A stretch of 64,000 bases of DNA from Bacillota bacterium (GTDB lineage: Bacteria; Patescibacteriota; Saccharimonadia; Saccharimonadales; UBA4665): assembly GCA_035478295.1 (NCBI GenBank), contig DATIJU010000014.1:202911-266910 (forward strand). The letters run 5' to 3'. Below are positions 17,296 through 57,079 of the stretch, piece after piece. The notes below the pieces were generated by a model. It saw only the letters and a program-made list of their open reading frames with translations, was not told the DNA's origin and did not search any database. Position 1 is the stretch's first letter, and every line of letters begins with the position of its first letter. The translations under genes and the position numbers were made by a program.

Positions 17296-17826
17296 ATGGC
17301 CCACATGGAGCAAGAAGCGTCGGGGGTTTCAAAAGGTAAAATCCGCTATCTAAAGCGCCCTCTTGCTATTGGTTTACTGGCCGCCCTCTGTCTTATCGTA
17401 ATTGGCTTTGCCCTCCGGTACACCCTCCAGCCTAAATCGTTATTTCCAGGTGCGCTGGCCCGGCAAAGCAACCACTTTGTACCCTACTTCTATTTCGACA
17501 AAGTGCCGGCAGGCTACACACTAGACGTATCAAAGAGCAGTGCAAACGACACTGCCCTGCTTATGACACTCACAAAAGCAGGAGAGCCACCGCTGGTGCT
17601 CTCCGAGCAGCAGTTACCTGATCGCCTCTCTCGCGAAGAAATCTTTCAAAACGGCGAAAAAGTTGACGTTGCAAATGGCAGAGCCACGATCAACAGCGTT
17701 GAAGGCCGATTGGTTGGCGCGTACACGCCTTCAGAGCATGATCTCCTCATACTTCTGAATGCCCCTGGACAAGCCAGTAAGGACGATATGAAACTGCTAT
17801 TACAGGCGCTCAAGCCCGTCCGGTAG
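17296..17826 (+). CDS. Small membrane-anchored protein, family member 1 (partner of giant protein 1)
   Basis: 176 aa (alternative ATG at 17305). One N-terminal TM segment, then a ~120-aa ectodomain with FVPYFYFDKVPAGY and VLSEQQLPD. It resembles the proteins at 32608..33174 and 42076..42924. It ends 1 nt from the convergent giant-gene stop. Confidence 0.6.
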   Translation: MAHMEQEASGVSKGKIRYLKRPLAIGLLAALCLIVIGFALRYTLQPKSLFPGALARQSNHFVPYFYFDKVPAGYTLDVSKSSANDTALLMTLTKAGEPPLVLSEQQLPDRLSREEIFQNGEKVDVANGRATINSVEGRLVGAYTPSEHDLLILLNAPGQASKDDMKLLLQALKPVR

Positions 17827-17827
17827 C

Positions 17828-20800
17828 TTAGCGCCGCGTGCCCAGCTGCCCAAGGACATCAAAGTAATCAACATCTATAAAACGGTTAGTTGTTCCGGCG
17901 TTCTTAGTTAGAGAGTTTGCCCAGTTTGTCTGCTGGGTGGACCCGGTTGGTACGGTTGCAACCTGACACTTGCTCACGCCATTAACCTGGAAGTCGGCCG
18001 AAGTACCTGCAGCATTGACCGCTACGGTTAAGTGATACCAAGTATCCACAGCCACCGTTATGGTAGTGTCGCAGGTGGTCGGCGTGCTGGCAGTGGTGCA
18101 TACACCCTGCCACTTACCAGTGTTTACCGTATCGGTATACTTGAAGAAACATCCGTTCGTGGGGTCGGCGCCAGTGCTACCGTCGTTGTTAAAGCCCGCT
18201 CGTACCGTGTAGGTTTGGCCGCTGCCCGACAGGCCAGATGCAGTTCGGATGCGAAGTGCTGTTTCGTAGCGCCAATAGTCACCATTGCCCAGTCGTATTA
18301 TATTTGAACCGCTGGTCCGAGCGAGCGTTGTAATAGTCGACCCTGCACCACCGGTGTTTGTTTCCATCGTCACGATACCGGGGTGGCCAATCTCACCGTT
18401 TACCGATCCGAATGCACCGGCAACACCTGGATCAAAATCGGCACTGGAGTCGGCAGCATTTCCGGTCATATCATTTGTGTAGTGATACGAGGTATTCACG
18501 CTCTCTAAACAGTCGCGCCAATGGTCAAACTCGTAGCAGCGGAATTGTCCCAGAGCACTGTTGTAGTACATGGCACCGGCTACACCTGTTGGGTCGCCAG
18601 CTTGCGCTCCACCAGTGTAGATGGTCTTAACGCCAAGGACTAAGACCATGCCGTTTGTGTCCCCGCCCGATGGGCCGACAACTACCTGATTGTTCAGCGT
18701 GTCTACGTTAAACATACTGGAACCGGCTGCATTTTGGATATTAAAGGCACCCGTGGAGTTGGCGGTGTTGCGAATATTTACCGGTGAGTTAATGACAGCA
18801 TCAAATGCCAGCGTACCGGCACCATATGAGCTTGCGGCGGCTCCAGCTTCCAGACGAACGCCATCAATCCAGAACGTGTGTGCAGTAGCGCCAGTTTGCA
18901 CGATGCGTATATCTGCGGAAGCGGTTGGCGCTGTAGCATCGGTGGTGAAAGTACAGCTAAAGCGTGTCCAGCCGGTGGTGGAAACCGTTTGGAAGCTGGG
19001 CGTACATTCGACAAACGAAGAACCGTTACGCGTGTAACGCGCTTTTATGTCGGTAAAGGTGCCGCTAGAGAGCTTGGCATACCACGACAGCGTGTATTGT
19101 TGTATTTGTATGAGCTTAGTTGGGTTGGTATTGCCTGTATTAAAGGCTGCGCCCGCCAAACCGTTAGCCGTGGTCGTAACCTTAAGAGAGGCGCTGCCCA
19201 CCCATGCCTGTGTAGAATCTTGGCCAACAGTAGCATTTGATGTAGGAGACCAACCAACATCGTTGAGCTCAAAGCTTGGGTTGGTAATGCCATTCGTGGG
19301 ATCTAATGTACCGACACTCATAACGTTGGTAGACGTCGAGGTTTGGATGTTAAAGAGGTCTGTGGTGTTGCTGTTGCCACGCACTAGTAGCGGCGAAGAT
19401 ATAGAACCCTGGAGATCGATTGAGCCATTGCTGTTGTTATCGGTGGTGGTGCTGGTATCAAGCGCGATAAAGAAGTCATCAAAGTACATATCGCGCGTGC
19501 TGGCGTCGGTTTGCTTGACGTAGAAGAACGGCGTGCCGCTGTTAGTGCCCGGTGCGGTTAGCGTACATTCAACGCGCGTCCAGCCGGTTCCCGTGAGGCT
19601 GGTGGTGCTTAAGGAACATGGTGTCGTGTCGGTGCTACCATCCGAGGAGTAGCCGGCGGCCAGCGTAAACATTTGTGCTTCTGACGGCCCAAGACGGGCG
19701 TAGAACGTGATGATGTAGGCTGCGGTAGTAGTGAGTGTGATGTTGTATTTTGCGCCGTCGCCTGCCGCATTACCACCTTCAACATACAGTGCGTCATTAC
19801 CTGAGTGGTGTTGTTGCATTGTGGAGATAAATGTAGGTACACTTCCTCGCTTCGCCCAACCCGAGGTGCCATTTTCAAAGCCGCTGTTCGTAACCAGGTT
19901 AATTCCAGCCGTCGAATCAGAAGTATTGATCGTCAGTATGCTGTTAGCGCTGGAGTTTTGGACCCGGAAGGCACTCGTAGAGTCGGTAGCGTTCTTGAAC
20001 GTAGTTACACCAGTTGAAGAAACGGAAAGTACATTGCCGGTGAAGCTATCGGTGGATCCGGTGGTATAGACCATGTTGACGTCGTAAGACAGCACGCCGG
20101 AGGTGTTTGTAGGCGTACCAAAAGGTGATGGCATAGTGCCGAAAGTGCTGTTTTGGTATGCCGAAGGTCCTGCATTGAAGTAAGGGTAGCGTAGATTGTT
20201 ATCGGATACATCGAAGCCAATCCAGTACTTAGTGCTTGCAGAGATAGCCACACTCGGCATCGAGAACGTGTTCCAACCCTCTACTACGGTCTGCTGCTGG
20301 CTTGTAGAAAGCAGTGCGCCTGGGAGGTTGGAGCCAGTGTCCGCATAGAGAGCGACCTGCGCACTGCCCGTAGGATTCTGGAAGAACACCCTAATAGTAT
20401 TAAGCGTACCCGAGCTAGCACCGCTTGTAATTTGAGAAGCACCTACCTGGTTAGCGTTACCTGCGTCCATATTCGGGAAGTTAGTAGAGTTAAAGCCAGC
20501 GGTAATTGTGCCGCCATTCGCTACGTTTGACGAGAGCTTAAGGCTGCCTCCGTCACTATTGTCGACACCTAGGAATATACTCCCGGCCGTGGTGTTCAGA
20601 TCAACCGTAGCGTCACCAGTACCGCCCTGCAGTAAACGCAGTGCAGGTGCCGTAGTATTGGAGTCATTGGTGGCGATATCCAGGGTGCGGGCTGGTGCGG
20701 CCGTACCGATACCGACGCGTTGGTTGGTGGTATCCACGTCGAGTACGGTGGCCGTAGCGAGAGCATTCTGGATCTGGAAAGCCGTAGCCGAGTTAGATGA

Positions 20801-23800
20801 ATTCTTACTGAGCACAGCGCCGGTGTTGCCAACACTAAACATAAGCGTACCGAGAGTAGTGTCGTTTGCGGCCGTAGCACGAATGTTCAGCAGGTTGGCG
20901 GCGATGCTGCCGCCATTGCTCGTACTCTGATCCTGGATGTCGAGCGTACCGCGAGTACCGTCAAGAATAATCTCTGAAGTACTGCCACCCGTAGAGTTGG
21001 TATACGCGTTCTGTAAGCTCACGAAACCACCACTGGCCGTAATACAGTCAGACCAAGTGCTGTTCTGGTAACAGCGGAACTTACCACTGTTACTGTTGTA
21101 GTACATAGCACCATTTACACCTGTTGGGTCGCCTGCAGTGTTCTTGGTGTCAAAGACAAGGAGCGTACCGTTCGCGTCGGCTGCACCAATTGTTACATTG
21201 CCGGAGCTTAGAATGCTGGTGCCGGCGGAGCCAGATTGCAACGTCAGAGCGCTCGTGCTGTTTGTGGAACCGATAGTAATCCCCTGCACTGCTGCACCGT
21301 TACCGATGTTAATAGTGTGGGCTGTGGCGCCGTTGCCGATATTGATGCCGCCAGTGTTACCTGCCTCAATAGTGACGCTATTGGCAGCAGTAGTAGCGCT
21401 GCCAATAGTTACAAGACTCGTGGAGCTGGCCGTAGCGTTAGTGCCAAGATTAATCGTCTGCGACACTGCGCCGGTGATGTTACCAATCTGAAGCGTGTTA
21501 GCCACGCCGCCGGTGCCTAAGTTAATACCGCCGGTCCCACCGAGCAAGGACAGTGTGCCGCCATTTGATTTGCCGACAGTGATATTCGAGTTGTTAACCG
21601 TACCAATATTGATAGCGCCGTTAGCCGTTGCACCCGTGCCGCCTTCAATGCTAACCGCACCACCGTTGCGCGTGCCTGATGAGCCGGTAGCGTTACCACC
21701 CTGGATGCTCATAACGCCACCGGCACACGCAGTACCACAAGTGTTGCTTGTAGAGTTGCCGGCGGTGAGCGTGAGTGTAGAGCCTGTGCCGTTTGCAGTG
21801 TTGATGGCTGCGGCTAAGACGTCTGATGTCTGCCCGCCGGGCAATGTGACCGCACCTGCTGCAGACACATTAAAGTTAGTGCTGGCAATCGTCAGGGCCT
21901 GGCTACTGGCTGCAGCGATACTGTTAGTGCTCGCTGCGCTAAAGCTCAGCGCACCCGCCGTGAGCGTAGAGGTACCGCCAATGCGAAGTACGCCCCCCGT
22001 AGACATATTGATGTCGCCGCCAACGTCCAGCTTATAGGCCGGCAATACAGAGCCGCCCAAGGCGATACCTACACGGTTATTGCTTGAGTCGACTGTCAAT
22101 AAATTGTTGCCACCATTGTTGTTTATGTCTATAAAGTCAGTACGGTTGACATTTGGCTGCATGAATATATTGCCGTCAATGCCAAAACCTACCAATATGT
22201 TACCCAGACCGCTATTATTTGAAGCACGCAGACTCAAGAAGTTAGCAGAGCTGCCCAATGAAAAGTCAGCATCCTGAATATCAATACCGGCCTGAATGTT
22301 GTCGAGCTTAATCTCCGGAGTGGACCCGCCAGCGGAGAAGCCGTAAGCAGCTTGCAATGTGCCGTTTATGGAGCCACAGTTACCTATGTCTAAACAAATG
22401 GTACCGGTACTATTAGGCAGATAATAGTTACGGTCGCCAGTCAGAAGACTGTTACCTAAGAAATTACCATAATAACCAGTGGCGTTATCTTCGATGGCCA
22501 CTTTACCACCAATACCCACGGCGCTGTTACCCAGGGCGAGCAAACCGTCATTGGTAATGCGGGCTACCGAGTTGGTGTTTAAGCGCTGAACGTCGATAAC
22601 TACATTGCCGCCGTTGCTGGGGGCAATAGCCACAATCGAAGCCTGCGAAGTCGACGGAGCGTTCACTACCAAGTTGTCATTAACCGTAGCCAGGCTCGTA
22701 TTGCTGTCGATTTGGAACAGCGGGCTGCCATTGGAGTCTTGCACCTGGAAAATATCAGCAGTCTGACCAACAGAAGCCTTGAGGATACCCTCGGTGTGGT
22801 CACCATTGCCCTGGATAAAGAAGTTAGCAACTTGGGCTGAGCCGAATTGGTTAGCAATACAACCACTCGTGGCCAGGTTATTACTACAGACAGTGGCATT
22901 GGCGGTAATTGCAGGCATACTCAGCGTGAAGTTACTTGCATTTGGTGTTGTCGGACCTTGCAGCGTGAGGGTACCACTGCCGCCAGAGCCCTTAAAGATG
23001 ATAGCGCCGGTGTTAGAGGTAGAGGTACCGAGCGTGAGGGCGCTTGCACCCTGTATGGCCACCGTACCCGTAAAGGTAGAGGCCGTATTGATAGTTTGAC
23101 CATTAATTGCGCCGGAAGTGCTCACTGTGCCAATGTTCACCAGGTTGCCACCATTGCTAATACGGTCTGTCGAGTCGGTCTGGATTGTGCCGCCTGTAGT
23201 GTTGATGTTGCCGCTTGCGCTCAGGCTTACGGCGGTGATTGCTCCGGCCGCGGTTACGCTGAAATTGGTGCCACTAATCGCGTGTGCGCCAATTGCCAAA
23301 GCGGTGGTGATGTTTGCGCCTGATGCGTCAAAGGCAGTAGTGATGCCGCCACCAGCTGCTGCCTGTACGGAGACACCAATACCCACCACTTCGTCGGTGT
23401 CGTTGTTCTTAACGAGCACCAACTGGCTGGGAGCCGATGGGTTAGCGCCGTTTGCAAGCGAGAAGACACTGGAGCCAGTAGCACCGGCTGCAGATGTCAC
23501 GGTGAAGTTCTGGGCACTGTTCATGGTAAACGCAATATCGTTACCCGTCGTCGAGATAGTGTTGCCTGCTGCATAGGCTTGCTGCAGCGTTACACTGCTG
23601 GGGTTTGCGTTACAGGTCGACAGTACACCAGCGTTAGAACATACTGCCGTGCTGCTGGCTGCTGCAAACGATCCAACGCTTACAGTGCCTGCCGATGCAA
23701 TATTGCCGCTGCCCGTAGTCGAGATATTACCTGGTGTCGAAACGTTACCACTGGTCAGCGTCACGCCGGTCAGGCCAGTGAGTGCGCCACCGGAAGTTAG

Positions 23801-29262: not shown

Positions 29263-30105
29263 TTATGTCGTCAATATGAGGTATATGACGATAACCGTGA
29301 ACACAAGGATTCCTACCACTGTTAAACCTATTTCCAAAAGGCTCTTATGCACCGCTTCTTCAGAAAGCGGATTACGCCCGATTGAAATAATGCTGGAGCG
29401 AACCGAAGAGTATAACAAAATAGTAACCACCACAAAGAGCATGAGCACCAGCAATGCCGCAATAAGCACCCGCACGGGCGACACATTATGCCCAGCTACA
29501 CTAGCGGCAAAATCTTGTAACATGGGTGGCAAAAATGAATTGTCGTCTTGAGGGGCCTGATAGAACACCTTATCTACCTGAATAGGTATTGCGCCGATGT
29601 GAACTGATAGCTCCTTACCCTTTTTGTTGGTCACCGTGCGCGTCTGCATAATGCTCGCCGACGAAAAATTAGCTTGGGCGGTGCCAATAACAAGAGTGCT
29701 TGTAGTAGCCTTCATACCAATTCCCGATATTGGCGAAGTCGTCACCTTATCGCCGGTCTTAATTGCGCCATTAATGTCGCTCACCAGTACGGTGGTCGAA
29801 CCGTTTGTCACCACCTGCACTGAACCAACACCATTAGTCAGCTCAATAACCGATTTGTTGCCCACAACACCTAGCAAGCGGTCCACATTGTCCTGCGTAC
29901 CCAGCTCCACCGTATTGGGCGTCCCCTGTTTGAGACTTACGAGCGCACCGACAACCACGTTTGGGTCACTACTCTGAAAACCTTGCGCTATGGAGGAGGC
30001 ACCTTGAGCGTTCAGTGAAGACACACCAAGTACCAGGATAGGCACAGCTAAGCCCAACCCAGCGTATCTTATTCTCTGACCGATCGATCGTCGCTTAAGC
30101 AACAT
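29263..30105 (-). CDS. Giant-protein partner protein A1: signal peptide, beta-rich ectodomain, C-terminal helical hairpin
   Basis: 280 aa with an ATG start. Signal peptide (...GVSSLNAQGA). ~170-aa ectodomain (LLGVVGNKSVIELTNGVGSVQVVTNGSTTVLVSDINGAIKTGDKVTTSPISGIGMK). Two C-terminal TM helices joined by RSSIISIGRNPLSEE. It is a clear paralogue of 41147..41983. Confidence 0.8.
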   Translation of the reverse strand: MLLKRRSIGQRIRYAGLGLAVPILVLGVSSLNAQGASSIAQGFQSSDPNVVVGALVSLKQGTPNTVELGTQDNVDRLLGVVGNKSVIELTNGVGSVQVVTNGSTTVLVSDINGAIKTGDKVTTSPISGIGMKATTSTLVIGTAQANFSSASIMQTRTVTNKKGKELSVHIGAIPIQVDKVFYQAPQDDNSFLPPMLQDFAASVAGHNVSPVRVLIAALLVLMLFVVVTILLYSSVRSSIISIGRNPLSEEAVHKSLLEIGLTVVGILVFTVIVIYLILTT

Positions 30106-33174: not shown

Positions 33175-33178
33175 CACG

Positions 33179-42075: not shown

Positions 42076-42924
42076 TTACTCGAGATCATCAATGTAATCC
42101 CCCCAAGACAACTCATTTACGAGGCTGGTGGAACGTATTAAAACGAGCAGTTGTTTCTTAGCAAAAATGACCGATCCCGCCCCATTGCTTGCAGTGCCAG
42201 TGTACGCCGTTATGCCACCCCTGCTCTGGATCTTTTTCGTGGAGCCGAATTGCTTTGCAACCTGCCGCACATGCGAATCAATGCTACCAGAGAAACTATC
42301 CGGCATCTGTTGCTCACTCACCACAATATGAACACCACCCAACTGATCCGAATAGGCAAATACGGGATCGCTACTTGGTGGGCTCACTCGCCCCCAGCCG
42401 CCGAGGTCTTCAATGGTTTTATTAGCAGGCAGAATAGTCGTAAATTCCGGCTTCTCATCGCTGTTGGTTGTAGCGGTAGCGCCGGAAACCGCAGACCCAC
42501 CTGTATGCGCAGAACTGGCGGGCTTATCGGACTTGTCATACATTCCCCGAGTGCCGATAACAAAAACAGCGAGCAAGCCCGCAGCCAAAGCAGTCGCCCA
42601 TTGCTTCCGGCTCAATTTTGGCAATCTGATACGGTGCAACTTATCGGCTAGGTGCAGCTTGGGCAGGCTAATCTTTATCTCAATCTCTTTAGGAGCACCG
42701 GGCGCAGTCGGCGCTGCCTGGCTGCCAAACATTCCAAAACGTCGCTTCTGTTTCTTCTCCGCCTTACGCCTGTCCCGCTCTATGGCATCAGCTAGCCGGA
42801 TACGATCGCGCTCCGCCCAAATATCAGCAACATCCACATCTCCACTCGCCGCCCTAAGGCTGCCGTCGGCGGCGCGCCGCAAAACAGGCCGTGGCCGTTT
42901 TATCTGCCGTTCTACTTCCCTCAT
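42076..42924 (-). CDS. Small membrane-anchored protein, family member 3 (long basic N-terminus)
   Basis: The longest ORF starts on TTG at 42939. The ATG at 42924 is preferred (MREVERQIKRP...). ~110-aa Arg/Lys-rich cytoplasmic region, one TM segment (WATALAAGLLAVFVIG), and an ectodomain with VVSEQQMPDSF that resembles VLSEQQLPD in 17296..17826. Confidence 0.6.
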   Translation of the reverse strand: MREVERQIKRPRPVLRRAADGSLRAASGDVDVADIWAERDRIRLADAIERDRRKAEKKQKRRFGMFGSQAAPTAPGAPKEIEIKISLPKLHLADKLHRIRLPKLSRKQWATALAAGLLAVFVIGTRGMYDKSDKPASSAHTGGSAVSGATATTNSDEKPEFTTILPANKTIEDLGGWGRVSPPSSDPVFAYSDQLGGVHIVVSEQQMPDSFSGSIDSHVRQVAKQFGSTKKIQSRGGITAYTGTASNGAGSVIFAKKQLLVLIRSTSLVNELSWGDYIDDLE

Positions 42925-42965
42925 AACTAAAGTATACAAGAGTTAAACTTGTACTTAAATCAGAC

Positions 42966-47656: not shown

Positions 47657-50600
47657 CTATTGGTTTGTATACGAGAAGTTCAGATTCTCTACATACACGT
47701 TGGCGTTACTCTGGGACTTAACATTTATCTTAAAGATAACGTTATTGCCGCCAGCAAAGGCGCAGCTGCTATTCTCGTTGCCGTTAATAGCAACCGTGCT
47801 CCAGACATTAGCCCCACCAGAGGTTGTGACATCGGTAGCCGTTCCACAGGCTGTAATCGCAGAGCCTGTACTCTTAAACATTTCGTAGGTCACAATTCCG
47901 TTCGTAGTGTTGTCTGTACGCGCAGTCAGCGTAACAGTGCTGTCGCTCACGAAATTCTTAAATGTCGTTGGGAGCTTATAAGTAACGTACATACTATAGA
48001 TCTGCTGCGTGCTCTGAGGCGTTGTCCACTTATAGAAGTTGCGGGCGTCGTTGCTGCCACAAAGCGAGCCAACAGTGAGGGCAGCTGAATTTGCGCAAAA
48101 GTCAGAGGTCAGCGTTCCAATACCCGTGCCGTTCAAAACGGCGCCAGTATACTCTGGCGTGAGTGTAATGATGCTGTTCGGCGCAGCGCCGCAAGCCCCC
48201 CAGGTAGTGCCATCGTAACACTGTATCTTAGCCTGGCTAGTATCGAAGTACATCGAGCCAGCAAGCGCTGCATTGGAGCCTGTAAACGGTATTGCAGCAT
48301 ACGAGTCGAGCGTAAGAAGCGTCAGGCCCTGGCTTATTGCGCCACCAACCCTCAGGTTACCTACGTCAGAGGTACCAGTGCTGTTCTGCTGCACGACACT
48401 CATGTTATCGATATCAATAACCCGGCTTACACCTGGTGCGTCTGTCTGACGCACAATCAGTAGCGCAGTTGTAACTGTGGTGCTGCCCGGAATAAATGTA
48501 CAGGTTATCTTTGTCCAGGCGGTTGTCGAAAGCGCTTGCGTACTGTAGTTACTGCAGGTTGCCGTGAGCGTTGTGCCATTATCCGGTGAGTATACCACCT
48601 GTAGCGTGCTGGCCATGGCCGTACCAGACACTTGCTTGGCACTAAATGAGACGATGTAGTTAACGGTTGTACTGGCCGTTGGGGCGGTCGCAAAGTTTAT
48701 CTTTACGCCGGCATTAGTCGAGGTGCCGAAGGTTACCTTAGCCGACTGCGAACCGCTCGCCGCATCGGTAGAGGTGCCGGTGGCAACCGAGCTACCAGTA
48801 CCCTGGGCAGCCCAACCAGTAGGCGGCGAACCAGTTTCAGCGCCACCGTTGCTGATGAGATTAAGACTGGCTGCCGTATTAGACGGATCAACAGTAAGCA
48901 GGCTCGCGCCCAGTGCGTTCTGTACTTGGAACGACCCTTGGGTACCCGTTCCTGTTGATGAACCCAGTATGGCTACGATGTTGCCGCCGTTATTGTTACC
49001 GCTACCGCCGGCGTTGCCAGCATTGATGGTAATGTTACCTCCCGTGCCGCCCGTGCCCGTGGCCGAACCGTTACCGCTTGCTACTACTACCGCACCTCCG
49101 TTGGAACCGGCCGTTGCAGCCGCCGTGCCACCCTGCAGCGTTGCCGTACCGCCGGCAGTCGCACCTTTGGCGGTACCGCCTTGTAACGTCGCGTTACCGC
49201 CCGCGCCACTAGTTGCACCGCCGGTACCACCGGTGATTGTAATGGCACCGCCAGCGCCTGTTGCTCCGCCGATACCACCATTGACGGTAATTGCGCCACC
49301 AGCCTGGGTGCCAGTTCCCTGGCCACCCGTAACCGCAACCGCACCACCTACTTGGTTCGTACCCGCCGCCGTGCCACCTTGCAAGTTCAACTGACCGCCA
49401 GCGCCGGTGGTGTTAGCCAGGCCCGCCTGTAGCGTTAGGTTAGCACCGCTGCCGCTGACTGGGTTTTGGTTGATACCAATCGTGCGGTTAGCGCCGCCGC
49501 CAAGGGACAGATCAAAGCTGGATATTTCACCGGCGTTCAAGGCGATTCCCACGCGGTTGTTGGTCGTGTCTGCACTTAAAGCCGTGTTCGTAGTGGTAGC
49601 ATTCTGTATCATAAATGCTGCTGTAGAGTTGCTGGAATTCTTAAAGGTAGCCTGGCCGCTTTGGCCTAAGACAAAGAGCGCATTGGTGTTTGAGTCGGTA
49701 AACGAACTAGTTTGTGTCACTGTGGCTTGGATGTTGAACGAACAAGTTGAGGTATTGAGAGCTGGAGCGCCCCAAGCGCTTACATTAGCCCAAACACCAT
49801 TTGTAATACCAGCATAATACTGACACTTGCTGCCGGCAGGCAGACCGCCGGCACTTGCAAACTGTGCGTTACCGCTCGTATTAAAGGCTAGCCAATAAGT
49901 GGTACCGTTGGTAACTGGTATTGGTGAAGTTACAATGACATTTGAGTTGTGGCCAAGGGCGTTAGGCGCCGAAATAGACTGCAGAGAGCTATAACCTATC
50001 GGCGTTCCACTAGGGAACGTACCAGAGCCGTTGTCCGCATATACCGCGACCGTGAATGTATTGGGGGTTGTGGGGGTCGTTCCGGCGGTACCGAAATCAA
50101 CTATCATGGAGTTAATATTTCCGGTCATCGTAGCAGTAAAGTTGCTTATCTGCACGTAATTCCCGTTGGTGTCCGGATTCGTACCGGCAAGCTGGCCAAA
50201 GGTACCCGTGGTGGTAGTGGTGGTAGCCGCAGTGTAGGAGTTAATAGTAAAGGCATTACCATTCGAAGCATCAACATTAACATAGAAGTTGTTGTTGGCG
50301 CTTGCAGTCTTCAGCTCAATACCGGCATCGCCCGTGCCCGCCTGCTGCACTATGACCGGCAGCGCGTTCACGGCGCTATTGTTTACAGACACGTCTAGAG
50401 TACGCGTAGCGACGTTTGTGTTAATGCCTACGAGGGCGTTCCCGGTATTGCCGTTACTGTTCGTGACGGTAAAGAGCGCGTTGCCCAGACCACTAGTGCC
50501 CACCCCTGCGCGGACAGCCAGCAACGGTACACTCGAACCAAGACCGCCATTTATATCCTGAATGTCGATTGCTGCACGTGAGGCATCCAAAGTTATCTCA

Positions 50601-53600
50601 GGAGTGGAGCTCCCTGCGCTGTTCGTATAGTCATTTTGGAGTGTGGCCGAGTCTGCGCCAGCACCAGTCCAGGCGCTACCCGTCCATAGAAGGGTAGCTG
50701 TTGCGCCTGGACTAAGCGATAAACTGCTGCCCGCAGTCAATACGAACGAATTTGAGCCGTTATTAGTGACATACAGCAGACGGCCAGCCTGAGAAGCACC
50801 GTTGGTTGGGCTTGGCACGGTAAAGGTCAGGCCCGGATTTGTGGCCGTAGCTAAGATTGCCGAGAACGAGTCAACCGTAGCCTGTGTAATTGTGGATGTA
50901 GCACCACTAGAATACGTGCCGGTCGTAAAGTACGTGCCACCATTAAGCTGAATAAGCCCCTTCGCGCCGCTTGCAGCTAAGGTGCCACCCTGGATGGTTA
51001 CGTTACCACCGTTACTTGCGCCAGTACCGTTGGCAGTACCACCCTGAATCAGCACATTGCCTCCTGTGGCGGCCGCGCCAGTACCACTTCCACCACCCTG
51101 GATTGTAGTTAGACCACCGGCTTGCGTACCACTGCCCGCACCGGAGATAAAGGTCAACGCTCCACCAATGACATTGCCCGTGTTGGCGGCCGTACCAGAG
51201 ACCGTAAAGTTGTTGGGGGCGCTAGCTGCGGAGCCGTTACCCAGGTACAGGTTGTTGCTAGTATCGAAGGTAGCGCGCACATTCGGACCGCTCGAACCGG
51301 TTACAATTTGCAGGCTGTTAGCGTCGGTGGTGCCGAGGACAGCAGTAGTGCCGAAGTTGTTGCCACCTTGCAAGAATGGCGTGCCGTTCGCAGTACCACT
51401 TCCACAAGTAATAAGGCTACCTGTGGAGCTATCGCGACAAACAGCGATAGCACTGGTTGTCGACGAACCGAGGGCACCCAGCTTCACTACACTAGTCCCG
51501 CCACCTAAGGTAACTTGGTTGTTGTTTACCGTACCTACTGTTATAACGCCCGACGTCGCAGCCTGAATAGAGACAGCACCATTACCCGTACTCGTGTTGC
51601 CACCTTGGATAGTCGTTACGTTTCCGGTACTCGCAATTGAGCCCACCGTCACCGTGTTCGTGCCGGCCGGCGTTCCATCGCCAATGTGGATAACCTTTGC
51701 ACCAGTGCCCACCGTGTTGCCGGTACCTATATTTATAGTGTCGGTGATACCCGTAGGCGTGTTGCCGCTAAAGGCAAAGAGTGTGCGGTTGGCGTCCGAT
51801 GCCACGTTACCTATATCTACCTGCGTAACGCGGTCATTGTTGGCCAGTTTTAGGCTTGCAGTACCGCTGTTGCCCGCCGTACCAGATAGAATGTTTACGT
51901 TAATTGTGCTGCCAGCGATGGTTTGCGCGCCGTTGCCAATATTAATTGTCTGAGTGTTAGCGGCGGTAAAGTCGGCGCTGCCCACATTAATGATATTGGT
52001 TGACGACGACTGCCCTAGCGTCAACGTACCAGTGCTCGCCGTACTGCCGACCGTAATAACGTTAGAGGCATTCGTGCCGATGCTGATGGTACCCGATGCA
52101 AGCGCTTGCAGCTGAACAGCTGAGGCACCGTTGCCGCCCTGAACGAGCACGGTTGTACCGTTTGCAGCCGAACCCGCAGTAGTAGAGCCAATGTTAACTG
52201 TTTGTGTGGCTCCAGTAGAAGTCGCTACGTTTACGGTACTTGCCTGGGCGGTCGCACCCGTTACTCCCAGGTTAACCGTCGGCGTATTAGTGTCTATGCC
52301 AAGCAGCGACGTACCGCCAGTGTTTAACACCTGGAACGCTGTGCTGGAGTTGTTGTAGTTCTGGAATTGCGCCTGACCAATGTTACTCAGGGTGAATAGT
52401 GAGTTAGAGCCAAACGTATCCGTCGTAGTATTCAGAGAATACGTAGCGTAGATGTTATAGTTCTGCACGCCCACGCCACCCGTACAGGTGCCATACGGTG
52501 ATGCAAAACCGAGCGCAAACGTCCGAGATATAAAACAGGAGGTGCCTGTATTGGTGAAACGCATATCGGCAGTAGGGTCGTTCGTATTAAAAGCTAACCA
52601 GTAGTTGGTGCCCGGAGACAGGCCGGCCGTAACAGGCGCCGTATTTAGAGCACCGGGTGTGATTGACTGGCTTGCGCTGGCAGCTATGAGTGAGCCCGGT
52701 ACGCCCGCATTGTCAGCGTATAGTGCAACCGCATACGAGTTAGCCGACGATCCGCCAACAATGAAGACCGAGATGCTGCTCATCGTGCCGGCAGTCCCAC
52801 CCATAGTGAACATGCTGGCATTTTGAAAATTCTGGTCGCCAGAGTCCGTAGTACAGCTTACACATGTCGTGCGGCCCATAGTATTGATTGAACCTGCCGC
52901 AACCGAAGAAGAAATCTTAAACTTGCCCCCGTCGCTAGTATCCACACCAGTATAGAAGCTACCGCCCGTACTCTTGTATTCCATGCTGGGGTCACCTGCA
53001 CCTAGTTGCTCGATAAGTAACGGACCGCCACTGGTGGTACTGTTGTTAACCGATAGGTGCAGCGGGCGTGTTGCCGTCTCAACACCAATGCCTACCAGCG
53101 GAGTGCCGCTGTTACCGCCGCTGTTCGTAACCGTAAGGAGCGGGTTGCCCTTACCACTGCCTGCGCCCGCCCGAACTGCCAGCAACTGAGCATTGCTCCC
53201 TACGTAGCCGCCATTGGCATCCTGGATGTCGACACCGCCGCGAGTGGCATCAAGTATTATCTCCGGGGTAGTAGTACCAGTTGAGTTATTGTAGGCATTT
53301 TGCAGGGCGCTCGAATCTACGCCGGCGCCCGTCCATGCGCTGCCGCTATAAATTAAAGTGGCTGTGCTACCTGGATTTAGCGAGATATTCGAAGATGCAA
53401 AACTTAATATAAAGCTGTTGCTGCCGACGTTTGTAATGTACATAACCCGGCCGGCCTGGCTAGCACCGTTCGTAGGTGTGGGTAGCGTAAAGGTCGAGCC
53501 GCCGGCAGTGGCCGTAACGAGTATGGCCGAATTAGAGTCAACAACACTCTGTGTGATAGTTGCGCTAGCACTACCGCTCGAGAAGCTGCCCGTCGTAAAG

Positions 53601-56600
53601 TACGTTCCGCCATTGAGCTGGATAAGCCCCTTTACCCCGCCGGCTGCGGCTGTACCACCTTGGATTATAACGTTACCGCCGTTACTAGCCCCGGTACCAT
53701 TGGCCGTACCACCCTGGATCGTTACATTGCCCCCACTTACTGCCGCGCCGCCGCCGCTAGCGCCACCCTGAATAGCTATCGCGCCACCATTACCAGTAGA
53801 GCCGGAGGTTTGTCCGGTTATATTCAGGTCGTTGCCGCCAGCCGCAGCAGCCGCAGCAAAGTTAATATTTGCCGCTTGATTCGCCTGGAAGCCCAAGGAC
53901 GTATTAATAGCAACACTCGTCAGGTTAGACAGTGAAGTATTGGCGTAGTTACCCGCCGTTTGGTAGCCAGCGCAAGCCGTATTTTCGGTACACACCGCAC
54001 GTACAGTCCCACCTTCAATTGTCGTCAGCTTACTAAGGCCGGAATTATAGAAGAGGCCACCATTAAGCGACGCTAAGTTAGTTGCAGGTACAGTAGCAGC
54101 ATCATCCAACTGCAAAATGGTCGTGTCCACATCCGTACCGGTCGAGTCGCCAATCTTAATAACATTTCCGGCCGTGCCACTCGCGCGGGTAACCGTATTC
54201 ACCGTCAATAAGGTATCAGCACCCGTAGCCGACTGCACCCGGAACGCACTGGCGCCATTAGTCTCATTGCGGAACAGTGCAGCACCGCCGTTAGCAACCG
54301 TCACTACTGCGGTAGAGTTATCGCTAAACACCGCTATGTTACCGGTCGAGGTAGAGTTGCTCACATTTAATGCGTCTCCAGTGGTCGCACCCGTCAAAGT
54401 TGTGAGCCCGCTTGCAACACGAATGGCAGTGCCCGTGCTGGCAGCAGTGGCTATATTAAGAGCCGTACCTGTACTTAAGCTAGTGGCCTGAATATTTACC
54501 ACAGTGCCGGCTGTCGTCGCATTCGCAGCAACGTTCAATAAACCGGCATTCGAAGTTGAAGTGTAGTTACCGCTGGCATTCAGCGAAATGATACCGTTAG
54601 TGGCCACCACATCTGCAGTAGAAGACGAAACCTTAAGTAGTGATCCGCTTGTCAGGTTAGCGCCAGTGCTATTTATGTTTACCCCCACACCCGTAGTCAA
54701 CGCGTTAGCCGTCACGTTCAAGCCGTTACCGGCCGTAGTGTTCACAGCAGAGATATTTACAGTGTTCCCCGTTCCTGTAGTGCTGGAGCCGGTGAAGTTA
54801 ACGAAGTTGCCGGTAAAGCCGGTCGTTGTACCAGACTGTACGACGTTGAGGGCGGTCGAGGTTGTCTGTGTTGCAAATGAGTTGGCGATGTTGACCAGCG
54901 TACCGGCAGCGCTAGCAGTCGCACTCACATTAAGAAGTCCAGCCGTGTTAGCAGTCGTGGTGAAGTTTTGGTTGGAGCTAATGACTGCTAAGCCACCGGT
55001 AGTAAATGCATCTACAGCTGTTGAGGAAACTTTTAATAGTGCACCGGTGGTTAGCACCGAGGTAGCATGTTGTAGATTTGCTCCTACACCCGTAGTGATG
55101 CCATTTGCCGTCAAGTTCAGGCCGTTGCCGGCGGTTGTGTTCACGGTGGTAATGTTCACCACGTTGCCGGTGCCTGTCGTGCTTGAACCAGTAAAGTTCA
55201 CAAAGTTACCCGTAAAGCCGGTGGTCGTGCCAGACTGCACGACGTTGAGGGCGGTCGAGGTTGTCTGTGTTGCAAATGAGTTGGCGATGTTCACAAGTGT
55301 ACCGGCAGCCGTAGCCGTGGCGCTGACGTTAAGAAGGCCTGCCGTGTTAGCAGTAGTGGTAAAGTTTTGGTTCGATGAGATTACGGCGAGGCCACCCGTA
55401 GTGAAAGCGTCTACGGCGGTAGAAGAAACTTTCAGTAAGGCGCCGGTAGTCAGGACCGCCGTTGCATGCTGTAAGTTAGCGCCTACGCCAGTTGTAATAC
55501 CGTTGGCAGTAAGGTTCAGGCCGTTACCAGCGGTTGTGTTCACGGTGGTAATGTTCACCACGTTGCCGGTGCCTGTCGTGCTGGAGCCGGTGAAGTTGAC
55601 GAAGTTGCCGGTAAAGCCGGTCGTTGTACCAGACTGTACGACATTCAAAGCTGTAGAGGTCGTTTGTGTGGCGAACGAGTTAGCGATGTTAACTAACGTA
55701 CCGGCAGCGCTTGCCGTCGCGCTGACGTTTAAAAGGCCGGCGGTATTGGCGGTGGTTGTGAAGTTTTGGTTCGATGAGATTACGGCGAGGCCACCCGTAG
55801 TGAAAGCGTCTACGGCGGTAGAAGAAACTTTAAGGAGTGCGCCCGTGGTTAGCACGGAGGTAGTATGTTGCAAGTTAGCACCAACACCCGTAGTGATGCC
55901 ATTTGCCGTCAGGTTCAGACCATTGCCGGCAGTCGTGTTGGCAGTGGTAATGTTCAGAACATTGCCAGCGCCGGTTGTACTCGTGCCCGTGAGATTTACT
56001 AGATTACCAGTGTAGCCCGTTGTAGTGTTGGACTGAGTAATATTCAGAGCTGTGGCCGTAGTTTGCGAAGCAGCCGACAGACTGAGGTCGAGTAAGTTGC
56101 CGGTAGTGGTTCCGCTAGAGCTTATTGTAGCTAAGGTACCAGTATACGCACCGTTATTCAGAACCTGCACCAGCCCAGCGCCTGCCGAATATGCCGTTGC
56201 ACCCGAACCTCTTACGCGCAAACCACCGCCAGTCGTTACGGTGCTAGCCGTAGTAACGTCCAGTGCAAATCCGCTCGTCAGCGAGTTTGCCGTTATGTCG
56301 GTTGCATTGCTCGTTGTAGCAGTGCTCGTCACAACCACAGCCGCCGCTTGCAGCGTGGCGGCTGTACCTGTCCCGTCAATCCAAAAGTTCGCCGACGTTT
56401 GGGCGCTGGCGTCCTGGTTTTGAATATAACTGTTCGCCGTTCCCGTAAGGAAACCACAAGTTGATGAGGTCTGAACACACAATGTACCCGACTCGGCAGG
56501 CAGATGTAAAACATTTGTTCCGCTCGGCGTGCCCGCATCCAGAATGGTAGAGTTGGTACTACCTCCGCCCCCAAGCGTTCCGGCACGGAACGCGTAGGGT

Positions 56601-57079
56601 ACGCTCGTTAGTTGCAGACGCGGGCTCATTTCGCCGTCCCACGATGGGCTGGCCGCGGTACCGCCGATGTTCATGGTCAACCAAAGCTGTTGGTCCCAGT
56701 TGATCGTGCTCGGAAAAGCGGTATTAGTCCCCAGGCTAACCGTCAGATATCCGTTGGCTACACGAACGCCCGCACCGCTCACCAAATAATCTTCGGTCCA
56801 CTTACAGTGGGTGTCACCTGCACAACTGCCTTGAGAAGAGCCAGAAGACGATAGCTGATCGTACAGTTTGAATTCAACGTTGTAAAAGTTATCAGGGACA
56901 ATACTGCCAGCCCCAGTCATCAGGCGTGCCTGAAAGTTTATCGTACCATTCGTAGCAGCGTGAGCCTTGCCGCCAAAGTAACTCGTAACCATACCCATGG
57001 ACAAAACCACGGCCATAATCAACAGCCCTAGCAGTTGATGCCGGAATAAGATCCCAGACGATCGCGGTTTTTGTCGCAT
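47657..57079 (-). CDS. Giant surface fibre/adhesin-like protein 3 (3140 aa), cleavable signal peptide
   Basis: Uninterrupted 9.4-kb ORF with an ATG start. Signal peptide ending ...GGKAHA/ATNG. Unique N-terminal domain (INFQARL...LTSVPYAFRAG). 133-aa tandem repeats. A duplicated ~480-aa supermodule. A Gly-rich tract. One CBM4_9-like module (~48386..48862; NLISNGGAETGSPPTGW). Unique ~175-aa C-terminal domain. No C-terminal anchor motif is seen. Confidence 0.9.
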   Translation of the reverse strand: MRQKPRSSGILFRHQLLGLLIMAVVLSMGMVTSYFGGKAHAATNGTINFQARLMTGAGSIVPDNFYNVEFKLYDQLSSSGSSQGSCAGDTHCKWTEDYLVSGAGVRVANGYLTVSLGTNTAFPSTINWDQQLWLTMNIGGTAASPSWDGEMSPRLQLTSVPYAFRAGTLGGGGSTNSTILDAGTPSGTNVLHLPAESGTLCVQTSSTCGFLTGTANSYIQNQDASAQTSANFWIDGTGTAATLQAAAVVVTSTATTSNATDITANSLTSGFALDVTTASTVTTGGGLRVRGSGATAYSAGAGLVQVLNNGAYTGTLATISSSGTTTGNLLDLSLSAASQTTATALNITQSNTTTGYTGNLVNLTGTSTTGAGNVLNITTANTTAGNGLNLTANGITTGVGANLQHTTSVLTTGALLKVSSTAVDAFTTGGLAVISSNQNFTTTANTAGLLNVSATASAAGTLVNIANSFATQTTSTALNVVQSGTTTGFTGNFVNFTGSSTTGTGNVVNITTVNTTAGNGLNLTANGITTGVGANLQHATAVLTTGALLKVSSTAVDAFTTGGLAVISSNQNFTTTANTAGLLNVSATATAAGTLVNIANSFATQTTSTALNVVQSGTTTGFTGNFVNFTGSSTTGTGNVVNITTVNTTAGNGLNLTANGITTGVGANLQHATSVLTTGALLKVSSTAVDAFTTGGLAVISSNQNFTTTANTAGLLNVSATASAAGTLVNIANSFATQTTSTALNVVQSGTTTGFTGNFVNFTGSSTTGTGNTVNISAVNTTAGNGLNVTANALTTGVGVNINSTGANLTSGSLLKVSSSTADVVATNGIISLNASGNYTSTSNAGLLNVAANATTAGTVVNIQATSLSTGTALNIATAASTGTAIRVASGLTTLTGATTGDALNVSNSTSTGNIAVFSDNSTAVVTVANGGAALFRNETNGASAFRVQSATGADTLLTVNTVTRASGTAGNVIKIGDSTGTDVDTTILQLDDAATVPATNLASLNGGLFYNSGLSKLTTIEGGTVRAVCTENTACAGYQTAGNYANTSLSNLTSVAINTSLGFQANQAANINFAAAAAAGGNDLNITGQTSGSTGNGGAIAIQGGASGGGAAVSGGNVTIQGGTANGTGASNGGNVIIQGGTAAAGGVKGLIQLNGGTYFTTGSFSSGSASATITQSVVDSNSAILVTATAGGSTFTLPTPTNGASQAGRVMYITNVGSNSFILSFASSNISLNPGSTATLIYSGSAWTGAGVDSSALQNAYNNSTGTTTPEIILDATRGGVDIQDANGGYVGSNAQLLAVRAGAGSGKGNPLLTVTNSGGNSGTPLVGIGVETATRPLHLSVNNSTTSGGPLLIEQLGAGDPSMEYKSTGGSFYTGVDTSDGGKFKISSSVAAGSINTMGRTTCVSCTTDSGDQNFQNASMFTMGGTAGTMSSISVFIVGGSSANSYAVALYADNAGVPGSLIAASASQSITPGALNTAPVTAGLSPGTNYWLAFNTNDPTADMRFTNTGTSCFISRTFALGFASPYGTCTGGVGVQNYNIYATYSLNTTTDTFGSNSLFTLSNIGQAQFQNYNNSSTAFQVLNTGGTSLLGIDTNTPTVNLGVTGATAQASTVNVATSTGATQTVNIGSTTAGSAANGTTVLVQGGNGASAVQLQALASGTISIGTNASNVITVGSTASTGTLTLGQSSSTNIINVGSADFTAANTQTINIGNGAQTIAGSTINVNILSGTAGNSGTASLKLANNDRVTQVDIGNVASDANRTLFAFSGNTPTGITDTINIGTGNTVGTGAKVIHIGDGTPAGTNTVTVGSIASTGNVTTIQGGNTSTGNGAVSIQAATSGVITVGTVNNNQVTLGGGTSVVKLGALGSSTTSAIAVCRDSSTGSLITCGSGTANGTPFLQGGNNFGTTAVLGTTDANSLQIVTGSSGPNVRATFDTSNNLYLGNGSAASAPNNFTVSGTAANTGNVIGGALTFISGAGSGTQAGGLTTIQGGGSGTGAAATGGNVLIQGGTANGTGASNGGNVTIQGGTLAASGAKGLIQLNGGTYFTTGTYSSGATSTITQATVDSFSAILATATNPGLTFTVPSPTNGASQAGRLLYVTNNGSNSFVLTAGSSLSLSPGATATLLWTGSAWTGAGADSATLQNDYTNSAGSSTPEITLDASRAAIDIQDINGGLGSSVPLLAVRAGVGTSGLGNALFTVTNSNGNTGNALVGINTNVATRTLDVSVNNSAVNALPVIVQQAGTGDAGIELKTASANNNFYVNVDASNGNAFTINSYTAATTTTTTGTFGQLAGTNPDTNGNYVQISNFTATMTGNINSMIVDFGTAGTTPTTPNTFTVAVYADNGSGTFPSGTPIGYSSLQSISAPNALGHNSNVIVTSPIPVTNGTTYWLAFNTSGNAQFASAGGLPAGSKCQYYAGITNGVWANVSAWGAPALNTSTCSFNIQATVTQTSSFTDSNTNALFVLGQSGQATFKNSSNSTAAFMIQNATTTNTALSADTTNNRVGIALNAGEISSFDLSLGGGANRTIGINQNPVSGSGANLTLQAGLANTTGAGGQLNLQGGTAAGTNQVGGAVAVTGGQGTGTQAGGAITVNGGIGGATGAGGAITITGGTGGATSGAGGNATLQGGTAKGATAGGTATLQGGTAAATAGSNGGAVVVASGNGSATGTGGTGGNITINAGNAGGSGNNNGGNIVAILGSSTGTGTQGSFQVQNALGASLLTVDPSNTAASLNLISNGGAETGSPPTGWAAQGTGSSVATGTSTDAASGSQSAKVTFGTSTNAGVKINFATAPTASTTVNYIVSFSAKQVSGTAMASTLQVVYSPDNGTTLTATCSNYSTQALSTTAWTKITCTFIPGSTTVTTALLIVRQTDAPGVSRVIDIDNMSVVQQNSTGTSDVGNLRVGGAISQGLTLLTLDSYAAIPFTGSNAALAGSMYFDTSQAKIQCYDGTTWGACGAAPNSIITLTPEYTGAVLNGTGIGTLTSDFCANSAALTVGSLCGSNDARNFYKWTTPQSTQQIYSMYVTYKLPTTFKNFVSDSTVTLTARTDNTTNGIVTYEMFKSTGSAITACGTATDVTTSGGANVWSTVAINGNENSSCAFAGGNNVIFKINVKSQSNANVYVENLNFSYTNQ
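49600..53830 (-). repeat. Two copies of a ~1.45-kb (~480-aa) supermodule offset by 2670 nt inside giant gene 3
   Basis: gtcgtaaagtacgt.cc.ccatt.agctg.ataagcccctt occurs at 53592 and at 50922 (offset 2670 = 890 codons). The protein copies begin GGNV.IQGGTANGTGASNGGNV.IQGGT...GLIQLNGGTYFTTG and run through PEI.LDA.R..DIQD, VGI...ATR.L..SVNNS and ..VA.YADN.. modules. Boundaries are approximate. Confidence 0.6.
54454..56050 (-). repeat. Tandem in-frame repeat, period 399 nt (133 aa): three near-identical protein copies plus one degenerate copy
   Basis: Unit starts (A of ALN[IV]..Q) lie at 56050, 55651, 55252 and 54853. ggcggtcgaggttgtctgtgttgcaaatgagttggcgatgtt occurs at 54851 and 55250 (offset 399). 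Units 2 and 3 differ by 1 aa in protein but diverge substantially in DNA. Confidence 0.88.

Follow-up and report, generated by a model that had tools for sequence, protein, structure and literature searches.

An island of nine genes in a 64 kb stretch of DNA (64,000 nt of contig DATIJU010000014.1, referred to as the window) encodes three giant fiber-like proteins (G1, G2, and G3), a Kelch-repeat protein (K), two paralogous membrane proteins (A1 and A2), and three small membrane-anchored proteins (sm1, sm2, and sm3). The organism is an environmental member of the Saccharimonadia (TM7). Comparison with related loci showed that the fibers, A, sm, and an F1-like ATPase belong to one conserved genetic module, in which the ATPase is an extra copy. 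The most fitting view of the window's cassettes is that they represent the A, giant, and sm portions of this larger module, whose ATPase genes lie at another place. The balance of probability tips slightly toward the fibers, A, and sm being the surface part of an envelope apparatus of environmental Saccharimonadia that is coupled to the F1-like ATPase, a coupling that we infer. Saccharibacteria, like other Patescibacteria, live in attachment to bacterial hosts, and to our knowledge, how they find, hold, and move on their hosts is largely obscure beyond type IV pili. The island takes up more than half of the window, a large investment for a small genome (close relatives have genomes of ~1.2–1.45 Mb), and the link between A and the ATPase recasts what would be giant adhesins of obscure role as an energized surface apparatus that can be tested.

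A-Led F1-like ATPase Operons in Related Genomes

Homologues of A1 were found in Candidatus Saccharimonadales and other Patescibacteria at 60–95% identity, every one of them annotated as hypothetical. For a census of A, 80 genomic loci around A homologues were fetched, and 83 A genes in 82 related loci were tabulated. A directly preceded a b-like gene and headed an ATPase operon in 48 of the 83 cases, and directly preceded a giant gene in 27. The operon order was A, b-like, delta-like, alpha, gamma, beta, and epsilon, the six genes downstream of A encoding proteins of ~200, ~160, 475–515, 285, 435, and ~90–105 aa. The stop codon of A and the start codon of the b-like gene were –19 to +19 nt apart in 47 of the 48 pairs, and 15 pairs overlapped by 4 nt, which indicates that the two genes lie in one operon.

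Operon identity was assessed at locus L032 as the example, and the same Pfam pattern was obtained for L083–L088. The alpha- and beta-like proteins of L032 matched ATP-synt_ab (E = 2.6e-63 and 2.6e-65, respectively), the gamma-like protein matched ATP-synt (3e-30), and the epsilon-like protein matched ATP-synt_DE_N (7e-12). The ~160-aa protein gave a faint OSCP match, and the ~200-aa protein consists of one N-terminal transmembrane (TM) helix followed by a coiled coil, resembling a b subunit; these b- and delta-like proteins were not recognized by Pfam or NCBIfam models. Scores fell below the NCBIfam equivalog cut-offs for atpA (388 vs 484), atpD (457.4 vs 462.85), gamma (90 vs 194), and epsilon (42.8 vs 67), and likewise below the cut-offs of the alternate F1F0 families. 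The epsilon-like protein comprises the beta-sandwich domain only (87–109 aa vs 143 aa in the canonical subunit), which is the domain that binds the rotor ring in F1Fo. No c-like open reading frame (ORF) was found near the operon by a c-subunit hidden Markov model (HMM) scan of the loci and an ORF listing of L062, and in a multi-TM scan of the loci, no a-like multi-TM ORF recurred at a consistent place. In public annotations, the downstream genes appear as 'F0F1 ATP synthase subunit beta' or 'F-type H+-transporting ATPase'.

In a midpoint-rooted neighbor-joining tree of 85 A proteins, built without support values, the deep branches were ATPase-linked. The giant-linked copies formed three derived clades, namely the A1 clade at the lepB site, the A2 clade, and a third clade; in close relatives, lepB is followed by A and then a giant, as in the window. 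From these sequence relationships, the ancestral role of A appears to have been that of lead gene in an accessory F1-like ATPase operon.

A conserved ~190-aa protein that contains the motif QAVFLTNGQVYFGK and a single TM helix is encoded divergently, immediately upstream of ATPase-linked A, in L032 (9292–9864, minus strand) and in 34 other loci. This protein may be a further component of the module. The deep-branching locus L081 carries two divergent A genes (4315–5160 and 10105–10935), one on either side of the F1-like operon. In L062, from the complete genome CP064960.1, two ORFs of 248 and 236 aa (11822–13322) stand in place of an undivided alpha-like gene, and the gamma- and beta-like genes are separated by an unrelated 390-aa ORF (14223–15395); decay of the F1-like operon may be under way in this genome.

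Coexistence with a Canonical ATP Synthase

The complete genome of Candidatus Teamsevenus rhizospherense (CP025011.1, locus L013) shows window-like synteny, with an A protein 70% identical to A1, and its published gene table lists two ATPase operons (PMC6031116 supplement). The canonical operon occupies the minus strand at 1,008,673–1,015,596 and encodes, in order, a 90-aa protein, atpB (264 aa), atpE (72 aa), atpF (178 aa), atpH (132 aa), atpA (517 aa), a 111-aa protein, atpG (290 aa), atpD (465 aa), and atpC (143 aa), with KO scores of 775 for atpA, 318 for atpG, 875 for atpD, and 118 for atpC (PMC6031116). The second operon (380,320–386,514) begins with a 273-aa membrane protein without a hit, followed by proteins of 59, 206 (membrane), and 195 aa, and continues with alpha (513 aa), gamma (286 aa, 'questionable'), beta (436 aa), and epsilon (109 aa, 'questionable'); the KO scores of these four were 442, 96, 521, and 58, respectively (PMC6031116). 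Since the protein sizes of this second operon match those of the A-linked operon and both operons are listed, the divergent ATPase is a paralogous F1-like system beside a normal ATP synthase, as seen in this one genome. This result corrects the annotation of the divergent operon as an ordinary ATP synthase. A search with the beta-like protein was saturated by one clade, and among the 120 matches listed, none was on the megabase contigs of window-type relatives. For the lineage of the window, we place the ATPase operon elsewhere in the chromosome, with extra A copies directly ahead of the fibers.

Linkage of Giants to the ATPase Module

In the A-based census, 13 ATPase-linked loci ran past epsilon into a giant with a G1/G2-type N-terminus, and one further ATPase-linked locus had a 716-aa protein of G1/G2 type after epsilon. 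Loci were also found through the beta-like protein, independently of A, and all six of them showed the same ATPase order followed by at least one giant. The giant was 3086 aa in L083, 5766 aa in L085, 1731 aa in L088, and at least 3375 aa in L087; L084 encodes a 715-aa protein followed by a 2197-aa Kelch giant, and L086 a 2279-aa protein followed by one of at least 1605 aa. BLAST located the G1/G2 N-terminal domain in the L083–L085 giants at 31–54% identity. L083 contains A, the six ATPase genes, the 3086-aa giant, and a convergent sm-family gene (E = 3e-17), which is the cassette grammar of the window with the ATPase inserted. In L085, the ATPase is followed by an A gene (51% identical to A1) and then by the 5766-aa giant, so A can move with the fiber inside the operon. 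L059 has a G3-like giant and a Kelch protein directly ahead of A and the ATPase and, with L084, ties Kelch giants to the operon. The short proteins P0137 and P0142, which have the G1-type N-terminus, had no adjoining ATPase.

Many Saccharimonadia genomes repeat the orders A–giant–convergent sm and G3–Kelch–sm3. The initial annotation of the window had proposed a dedicated apparatus whose partner genes are linked to giants. One conserved apparatus with recurring gene orders did emerge, in place of three adhesins without relation to one another, but its partner A is not dedicated to fibers, as it heads an F1-like operon in 48 of the 83 cases. A is therefore partly unlinked from giants, many deep lineages having none within 10 kb of it, and for A this goes some way toward what the annotation had named as counting against its own proposal. 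The same annotation did not recognize the locus as a described system, and this held as far as the literature that we found, which contains no account of A, sm, or their link to giants and the ATPase.

Anatomy of Protein A

Over their full length, A1 and A2 share 51% identity. Neither was assigned to a Pfam or NCBIfam family, and no such family names the partner proteins in general, as the initial annotation had anticipated; a Pfam match of A1 to the XM1_gp53 minor capsid protein (E = 4e-4) was below the cut-off. The family of ~270–290-aa proteins comprises 452 clusters at the 50% identity level (E ≤ 1e-30, among 1.84 billion representative proteins). Its members consist of a signal peptide, a ~175-aa ectodomain, and two C-terminal helices. 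Across 85 sequences whose overall identity falls to 35%, conservation of the loop between these helices, SIISIGRNP, is at least 95%, and A1 and A2 retain it. Mean conservation was 0.84 in the loop vs 0.52–0.60 in the other mature regions, and G-R-N-P was invariant in a 29-sequence alignment of the hairpin. Because the signal peptide suggests that the N-terminus lies outside, the loop would be on the cytoplasmic side.

A structure model of A1 had a pLDDT of 63 overall, with a confident beta core (residues 100–177) and hairpin (210–244/249–279) at pLDDT 70–87. Foldseek gave no match of the A1 model in the PDB at E ≤ 0.001. In BFVD, the beta core matched viral appendage and fiber proteins (best E = 7e-5, ranging to 6.5e-3), including a 'preneck appendage protein' at E = 3.3e-4. 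The base of the phi29 head fiber (PDB 6qyy) was matched with a probability of 0.87–0.94 but E of 0.2–0.3.

Modules homologous to the A ectodomain also occur within giant or large surface proteins of L084 (14203–20796, residues 1895–2014), L014 (4226–7432), and L021 (2–2173). These modules in the giants of other loci were matched at E = 5e-7 by BLAST, with an HMM domain E of 2.5e-14 in L014; the window's own giants contained no such module at E ≤ 0.01.

Layout of the Island

The nine genes cover 36,828 nt, or 57.5% of the window, by the ORF table (Table 1). The table reproduced the ORF coordinates, the sizes of 3768, 2611, 3140, and 1539 aa, and the ~57% share given in the initial annotation. 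As had been described, the only genes breaking up the island are lepB, parB, and parA, identified with the help of the Pfam families of the syntenic genes. The repeated cassette grammar proposed there fits the intergenic gaps, and the order recurs in relatives. Opposite-strand stop-to-stop spacing is 1 nt for sm1/G1 and 4 nt for sm2/G2; A1 is separated from G1 by 128 nt and A2 from G2 by 132 nt. The genes G3, K, sm3, A2, and G2 all run in one direction as a single array, separated in turn by 71, 26, 92, and 132 nt.

Table 1. Features of the surface-fiber island, with positions in nt of the window
Feature	Position	Strand	Description
sm1	17296–17826	+	N-terminal TM helix (residues 22–40), ectodomain of ~137 aa; convergent with G1
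G1	17828–29134	–	3768 aa; cytoplasmic tail, TM helix aa 70–88, modular ectodomain
G1 CBM_4_9 carbohydrate-binding module	19517–19900	–	aa 3079–3206
G1 conserved N-terminal region	27575–29134	–	aa 1–520; 55% identity to G2
A1	29263–30105	–	Signal peptide, beta-rich ectodomain, C-terminal two-helix hairpin
A1 near-invariant loop (predicted cytoplasmic) SSIISIGRNPLS	29362–29397	–	aa 237–248
sm2	32608–33174	+	Small anchored family; convergent with G2
G2	33179–41014	–	2611 aa; N-terminal TM helix aa 67–85, N-terminal domain as in G1
A2	41147–41983	–	A1 paralogue
A2 loop SSIIAIGRNPLS	41246–41281	–	
sm3	42076–42939	–	Long form: basic cytoplasmic N-terminal ~110 aa, TM helix, ectodomain homologous to sm1/sm2
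K	42966–47585	–	1539 aa; TM aa 64–82, Kelch repeats at ~aa 337–1380
G3	47657–57079	–	3140 aa; signal-peptide-like N-terminus, no TM anchor, modules in common with G1
G3 in-frame tandem array	54687–55956	–	Period 399 nt = 133 aa; 3.2 copies, 80% matches

A promoter and terminator scan gave sites no more frequent than in shuffled controls, and Rfam and tRNA scans of the window gave nothing. GC skew on the plus strand was positive over the giants at 18000–28000, 34000–36000, and 54000–56000 and negative over the other minus-strand genes, and G+C was 2–4 points higher over these giant stretches. Both shifts are probably a coding effect of Thr/Ser/Ala/Asn-rich proteins and not a sign of foreign origin.

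Giant Proteins and the Kelch Protein

Gly, Ala, Ser, Thr, and Asn make up 57–64% of G1, G2, and G3, and charged residues are nearly absent. The giants are mosaics of repeated modules common to one another: G1 and G2 share residues 1–510 at 55% identity as well as scattered modules, and G1 and G3 share ~400-aa modules at 35%. G1, G2, and K have a single N-terminal TM helix behind a ~60-aa tail, and the N-terminus of G3, judged from the sequence by eye, is signal-peptide-like and ends in AHA|A. TM analysis and sequence inspection thus agreed with the anchoring described initially, with N-terminal TM helices in G1 and G2 and a signal-peptide-like start without an anchor in G3. Giants of the G1/G2 type, whether beside A or behind the ATPase, have a common N-terminal layout that stays constant while length and distal modules vary. 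It consists of an M-(E/D)-N start, a variable and often proline-rich cytoplasmic tail, one TM helix, and a conserved juxtamembrane domain with the motif GQ(I/L)Y(F/Y)D...N.L.YYNG..F. The idea of exchangeable fibers fits this constant membrane-proximal end with its varying length and distal modules.

Sequence searches of G1, G2, and G3 against Pfam, NCBIfam, and the PDB returned nothing except CBM_4_9 in G1, and no LPXTG sortase motif was found near the C-termini of the giants. The Kelch repeats of K were above the gathering scores of PF24681 (111 bits vs 50) and PF01344 (74.9 vs 20.1). The G1 N-terminal region has one weak homologue (E = 7e-4), which carries the annotation of trimeric autotransporter adhesin, and motifs of the region look, at the sequence level, like tail-fiber motifs.

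Intact giants of 1,369–5,766 aa occupy the same positions in relatives, and on present evidence the giants do not appear to be artifacts. The integrity of the ORFs, which the initial annotation had asserted, is backed by intact giants in the independent assemblies of relatives; the copy number of the G3 array could be mis-assembled. Since protein-level identity between some array copies reaches 96%, this 399-nt array is the likeliest site of an assembly error.

At the post-L21 site of L090 (complete genome CP065013.1), a region at 10001–14915 encodes an 866-aa protein with a G1-type N-terminus and then a 778-aa protein, followed by a convergent 176-aa gene and a further giant of >3000 aa. Because no A lies upstream there, some fibers of the G1-type family occur without an adjacent A.

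Small Anchored Family

BLAST among sm1, sm2, and sm3 detected no similarity. Iterative HMM searches over related loci placed the three in one family, and a profile–profile comparison of the ectodomains, with the TM segments removed, gave a probability of 96.4% and E = 1.3e-9. The members share the motif (I/V)-S-E-Q-x-L-P. The description of sm3 as a third small anchored protein was thereby upheld by the HMM searches, the profile comparison, and the motif. The family did not exceed the gathering score of DUF4245, which matched weakly in 3 of 15 members (best E = 6e-4), and individual scans of sm1, sm2, and sm3 gave no DUF4245 match. No match to the PDB was found for the family.

Proposed Mechanism and Alternatives

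In the mechanism that we favor, G1 and G2 would be giant tail-fiber-like proteins held in the membrane by one N-terminal helix, and G3 would be a secreted giant encoded together with the membrane-anchored Kelch protein. Each unit would have an sm-family membrane-anchored protein, with a copy of A ahead of G1 and of G2. Within a second F1-like ATPase, accessory in kind and with neither an a nor a c subunit, A would be the leading membrane subunit. It would oligomerize in the membrane, its cytoplasmic loop SIISIGRNP touching the gamma/epsilon-like shaft, as the R-Q/N-P loops of c-rings do, and its ectodomain holding the membrane-proximal base of the fiber. ATP hydrolysis in the cell could then be converted into movement or tension of the fibers outside, for contact with the host cell or movement on it. 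We infer the physical contact between A and the ATPase, the contact between A and the fiber, and any mechanical output. A more specific version, which we put forward tentatively and regard as possible though less than probable, is a new rotary machine in which the F1-like motor turns or strains a ring of A whose ectodomains carry or engage the giant fibers, thereby moving, tensioning, or retracting host-contact fibers. If true, this would be the second independent recruitment of an F1-ATPase for surface mechanics, after Mycoplasma mobile gliding, and the window would represent its fiber-bearing end, diversified by duplication of the A–fiber–sm cassette.

Several results weigh against this mechanism. 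The A hairpin had no Pfam match to the c subunit (PF00137), and its profile had no match among PDB sequences even at E = 10. In an hhalign comparison with seven c subunits, the loops were in register at a probability of 3% (P = 0.014), and Foldseek matches of A to c subunits had E around 1. Helix 2 of A lacks the ion-binding carboxylate, the position after SLL varying among E, Q, R, T, V, H, and N; helix 1 lacks the GxGxG glycine packing motif; and a two-helix hairpin is a simple fold. Since the profile and hhalign results are not significant, we do not claim homology of A to c subunits. The window itself contains no ATPase gene, and the presence of the F1-like operon in its organism is extrapolated from one complete relative, CP025011.1, where the 273-aa lead protein of the second operon is a candidate A-family member (the genome scan kept only one A locus for this genome). 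Many ATPase-linked A loci, including those of deep-branching lineages, have no giant within 10 kb, and the six loci derived from the beta-like protein represent one clade with at least 76% identity. G3 and some fibers of relatives have no A upstream. A monomer model of G1 residues 1–520, built from 24 sequences, reached a pLDDT of 55 and was too poor for a structure search; so low a value would suit an obligate multimer, without being evidence of one.

The same gene order might reflect an export or assembly machine, in which the ATPase, having a stalk of b- and delta-like proteins and a gamma-like shaft, energizes, in the manner of FliH/FliI/FliJ, export, unfolding, or assembly of the fibers at a platform of A, with A and sm as assembly factors. 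The alpha- and beta-like subunits do score on FliI/SctN models, at levels far below their F1 scores; the substrates would be the 1,700–5,800-aa proteins encoded immediately downstream; and G1 and G2 each have their own copy of A, as is usual for dedicated chaperones. The N-terminal signal anchors of G1, G2, and K and the signal-peptide-like N-termini of G3 and A point instead to the Sec pathway, and the operon keeps a full F1 set with an epsilon beta-sandwich and separate alpha and beta subunits, unlike a homohexameric export ATPase. With no conserved polytopic protein resembling an export gate nearby, we judge such a machine unlikely. It is also rather improbable, in our view, that the island encodes passive adhesins, with static adhesins or surface-layer fibers that A and sm anchor or mature without the ATPase and with a linkage due to co-regulation or hitch-hiking. 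The 27 A genes beside giants have no ATPase gene in their loci, as in the window, and G1 and K contain binding modules (CBM_4_9 and Kelch propellers, respectively); a preprint on the pam pilus took the same co-localization as metabolic coupling. The short A–b distances in 47 of 48 pairs, however, indicate one operon, and A proteins of as little as 35% identity still show the linkage. In L085, A stands between epsilon and the giant. Moreover, the most conserved part of A, predicted to be cytoplasmic, is unchanged in the giant-linked copies, which is hard to square with extracellular anchoring.

Public annotation of the downstream genes as ATP synthase, together with the atpE position of A upstream of the b gene, would also suit a subunit or assembly factor of an ordinary ATP synthase, to which the adjacent giants are incidental. 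This is very improbable given that in Teamsevenus the canonical operon is separate and complete, includes a and c subunits, and reaches KO scores about twice as high, that Southlakia has a canonical operon with neither A nor giants at this backbone site, that the b- and delta-like proteins escape Pfam and NCBIfam recognition, and that A persists beside giants without the ATPase. A prophage remnant, mobile island, or assembly artifact is scarcely more than a nominal prospect. The tail-fiber-like motifs of the giants, the viral structural matches of the A ectodomain, the slightly raised G+C with reversed GC skew, and the internal repeats of the giants all lean that way. On the other side, genes for an integrase, capsid, terminase, or tRNA are absent from the window, the island fills the same positions in the chromosomes of many genomes, complete ones included, and orthologous intact giants occur in independent assemblies.

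Comparison with Known Systems

The nearest functional analogue of the ATPase-coupled fibers that we propose is the gliding machinery of Mycoplasma mobile, in which an F1-like G1-ATPase (MMOB1660/1670) operates with the giants Gli123, Gli349, and Gli521. Two articles describe this machinery as an F1-like ATPase combined with giant leg proteins (PMC8406192, PMC11864180). Both cases feature a second F1-derived ATPase beside a normal synthase, surface proteins of thousands of residues, and a wall-reduced or ultrasmall host-attached bacterium. The beta-like subunit scored 300 bits against the G1-ATPase beta chain 9io5_A and 384 bits against F1 beta. Scores for the gliding families were well below the cut-offs (306.5 vs 600 for glide_MMOB1660 and 341.4 vs 850 for glide_MMOB1670), and the alpha- and beta-like proteins resemble true F1 more than they do the gliding ATPase. 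Unlike in M. mobile, the operon keeps gamma, epsilon, delta-like, and b-like genes, A has no Mycoplasma counterpart, the membrane and surface parts appear unrelated, and the fibers are encoded in or beside the ATPase operon. The Pfam, NCBIfam, and PDB searches gave no match between the giants and Gli proteins, with no direct comparison to Gli sequences made. If the proposed force coupling is true, the apparatus would contain the second F1-type motor in surface mechanics and the first with a ring-position subunit that bears an extracellular domain.

The type 3 'F1-like X0' ATPases of Mollicutes likewise comprise an accessory alpha/beta/gamma/epsilon operon with unknown membrane proteins replacing Fo, but scores for these families were low (MSC_0619_alpha, 260.2 vs 520; MSC_0618_beta, 375.4 vs 570), and the membrane partners and phylum differ. 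A resembles the c-ring of F1Fo in its atpE position, its C-terminal hairpin, its predicted N-out/loop-in topology, and its G-R-N-P loop; mitochondrial c subunits carry A/S-R-N-P-S at this place. It differs in having a ~175-aa extracellular domain and a signal peptide, and the operon has no a subunit. In the flagellar and type III FliH-FliI-FliJ complexes, an F1-related ATPase with stalk- and shaft-like partners likewise serves a surface filament. The operon described here differs by its separate alpha and beta subunits, its epsilon, and its far higher F1 than FliI/SctN scores, and no export-gate homologue was seen. The modeled beta core of A appears structurally similar to phage fibers and appendages (the phi29 gp8.5 base, gp12, tail fibers, and DUF2190 decoration proteins), whereas the island proteins are cellular, membrane-anchored, and encoded at a fixed chromosomal site with no virion genes alongside.

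In the neighborhood of the pam pilus operon of CPR bacteria, 'ATP synthase' and 'tail fibre-like' genes are co-localized (bioRxiv 10.64898/2026.03.03.709456). In the preprint, that ATPase is taken for metabolic ATP synthase, and A, sm, and the giants go undescribed. These genes are probably the same ATPase–fiber module, likened here by description and not by sequence, and the module would explain their co-localization near a pilus operon. Accessory F1-like ATPases tied to surface machinery are a known kind of system, with a substantial chance here of something more novel. The cultivable Mycosynbacter amalyticus probably has the module.

Chromosomal Sites and Neighboring Genes

The flanks of the island are housekeeping genes (ileS, L21, parA, parB, lepB, an LCP-family protein, a 255-aa membrane protein, and HtrA, and further PrmC, RF1, ProRS, RseP, and ribonucleotide reductase), and the same arrangement occurs on megabase contigs of relatives. 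The oral Southlakia epibionticum has a backbone of ileS, L21, parA, parB, lepB, LCP, a 780-nt hypothetical gene, and an HtrA-like gene, with no giant, A, or sm gene among them (PMC10633639 supplementary table). As Southlakia shares this backbone without the island, the island occupies two sites, L21/parA and lepB/LCP. Either the island is confined to environmental lineages with larger genomes, or the oral lineage has lost it. The Southlakia proteins SEML1_0890 and SEML1_0891, reported as essential 'adhesins' in a 2023 Cell paper, were considered as homologues and rejected, being 195 and 565 aa long and located at a different locus.

Between the LCP and HtrA genes, positions 14723–15490 encode the 255-aa polytopic membrane protein, for which no family was found. 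The Southlakia gene at the equivalent position, SEML1_0187 (780 nt), was scored as essential in a published Tn-seq table, with orthology judged by position only. The ribonucleotide reductase ORF (61351–63696) starts at position 12 of the barrel profile, without an N-terminal domain, and a 137-aa ORF with no family (60978–61391) overlaps its 3' end; the relative at L090 has a 922-aa ribonucleotide reductase with Ribonuc_red_2_N. Lying near the edge of the window, this gene may have been split, frameshifted, or assigned a wrong start. Finally, positions 1098–3089 encode a class II aminoacyl-tRNA synthetase of the D/K/N type fused to a C-terminal DUF2000.

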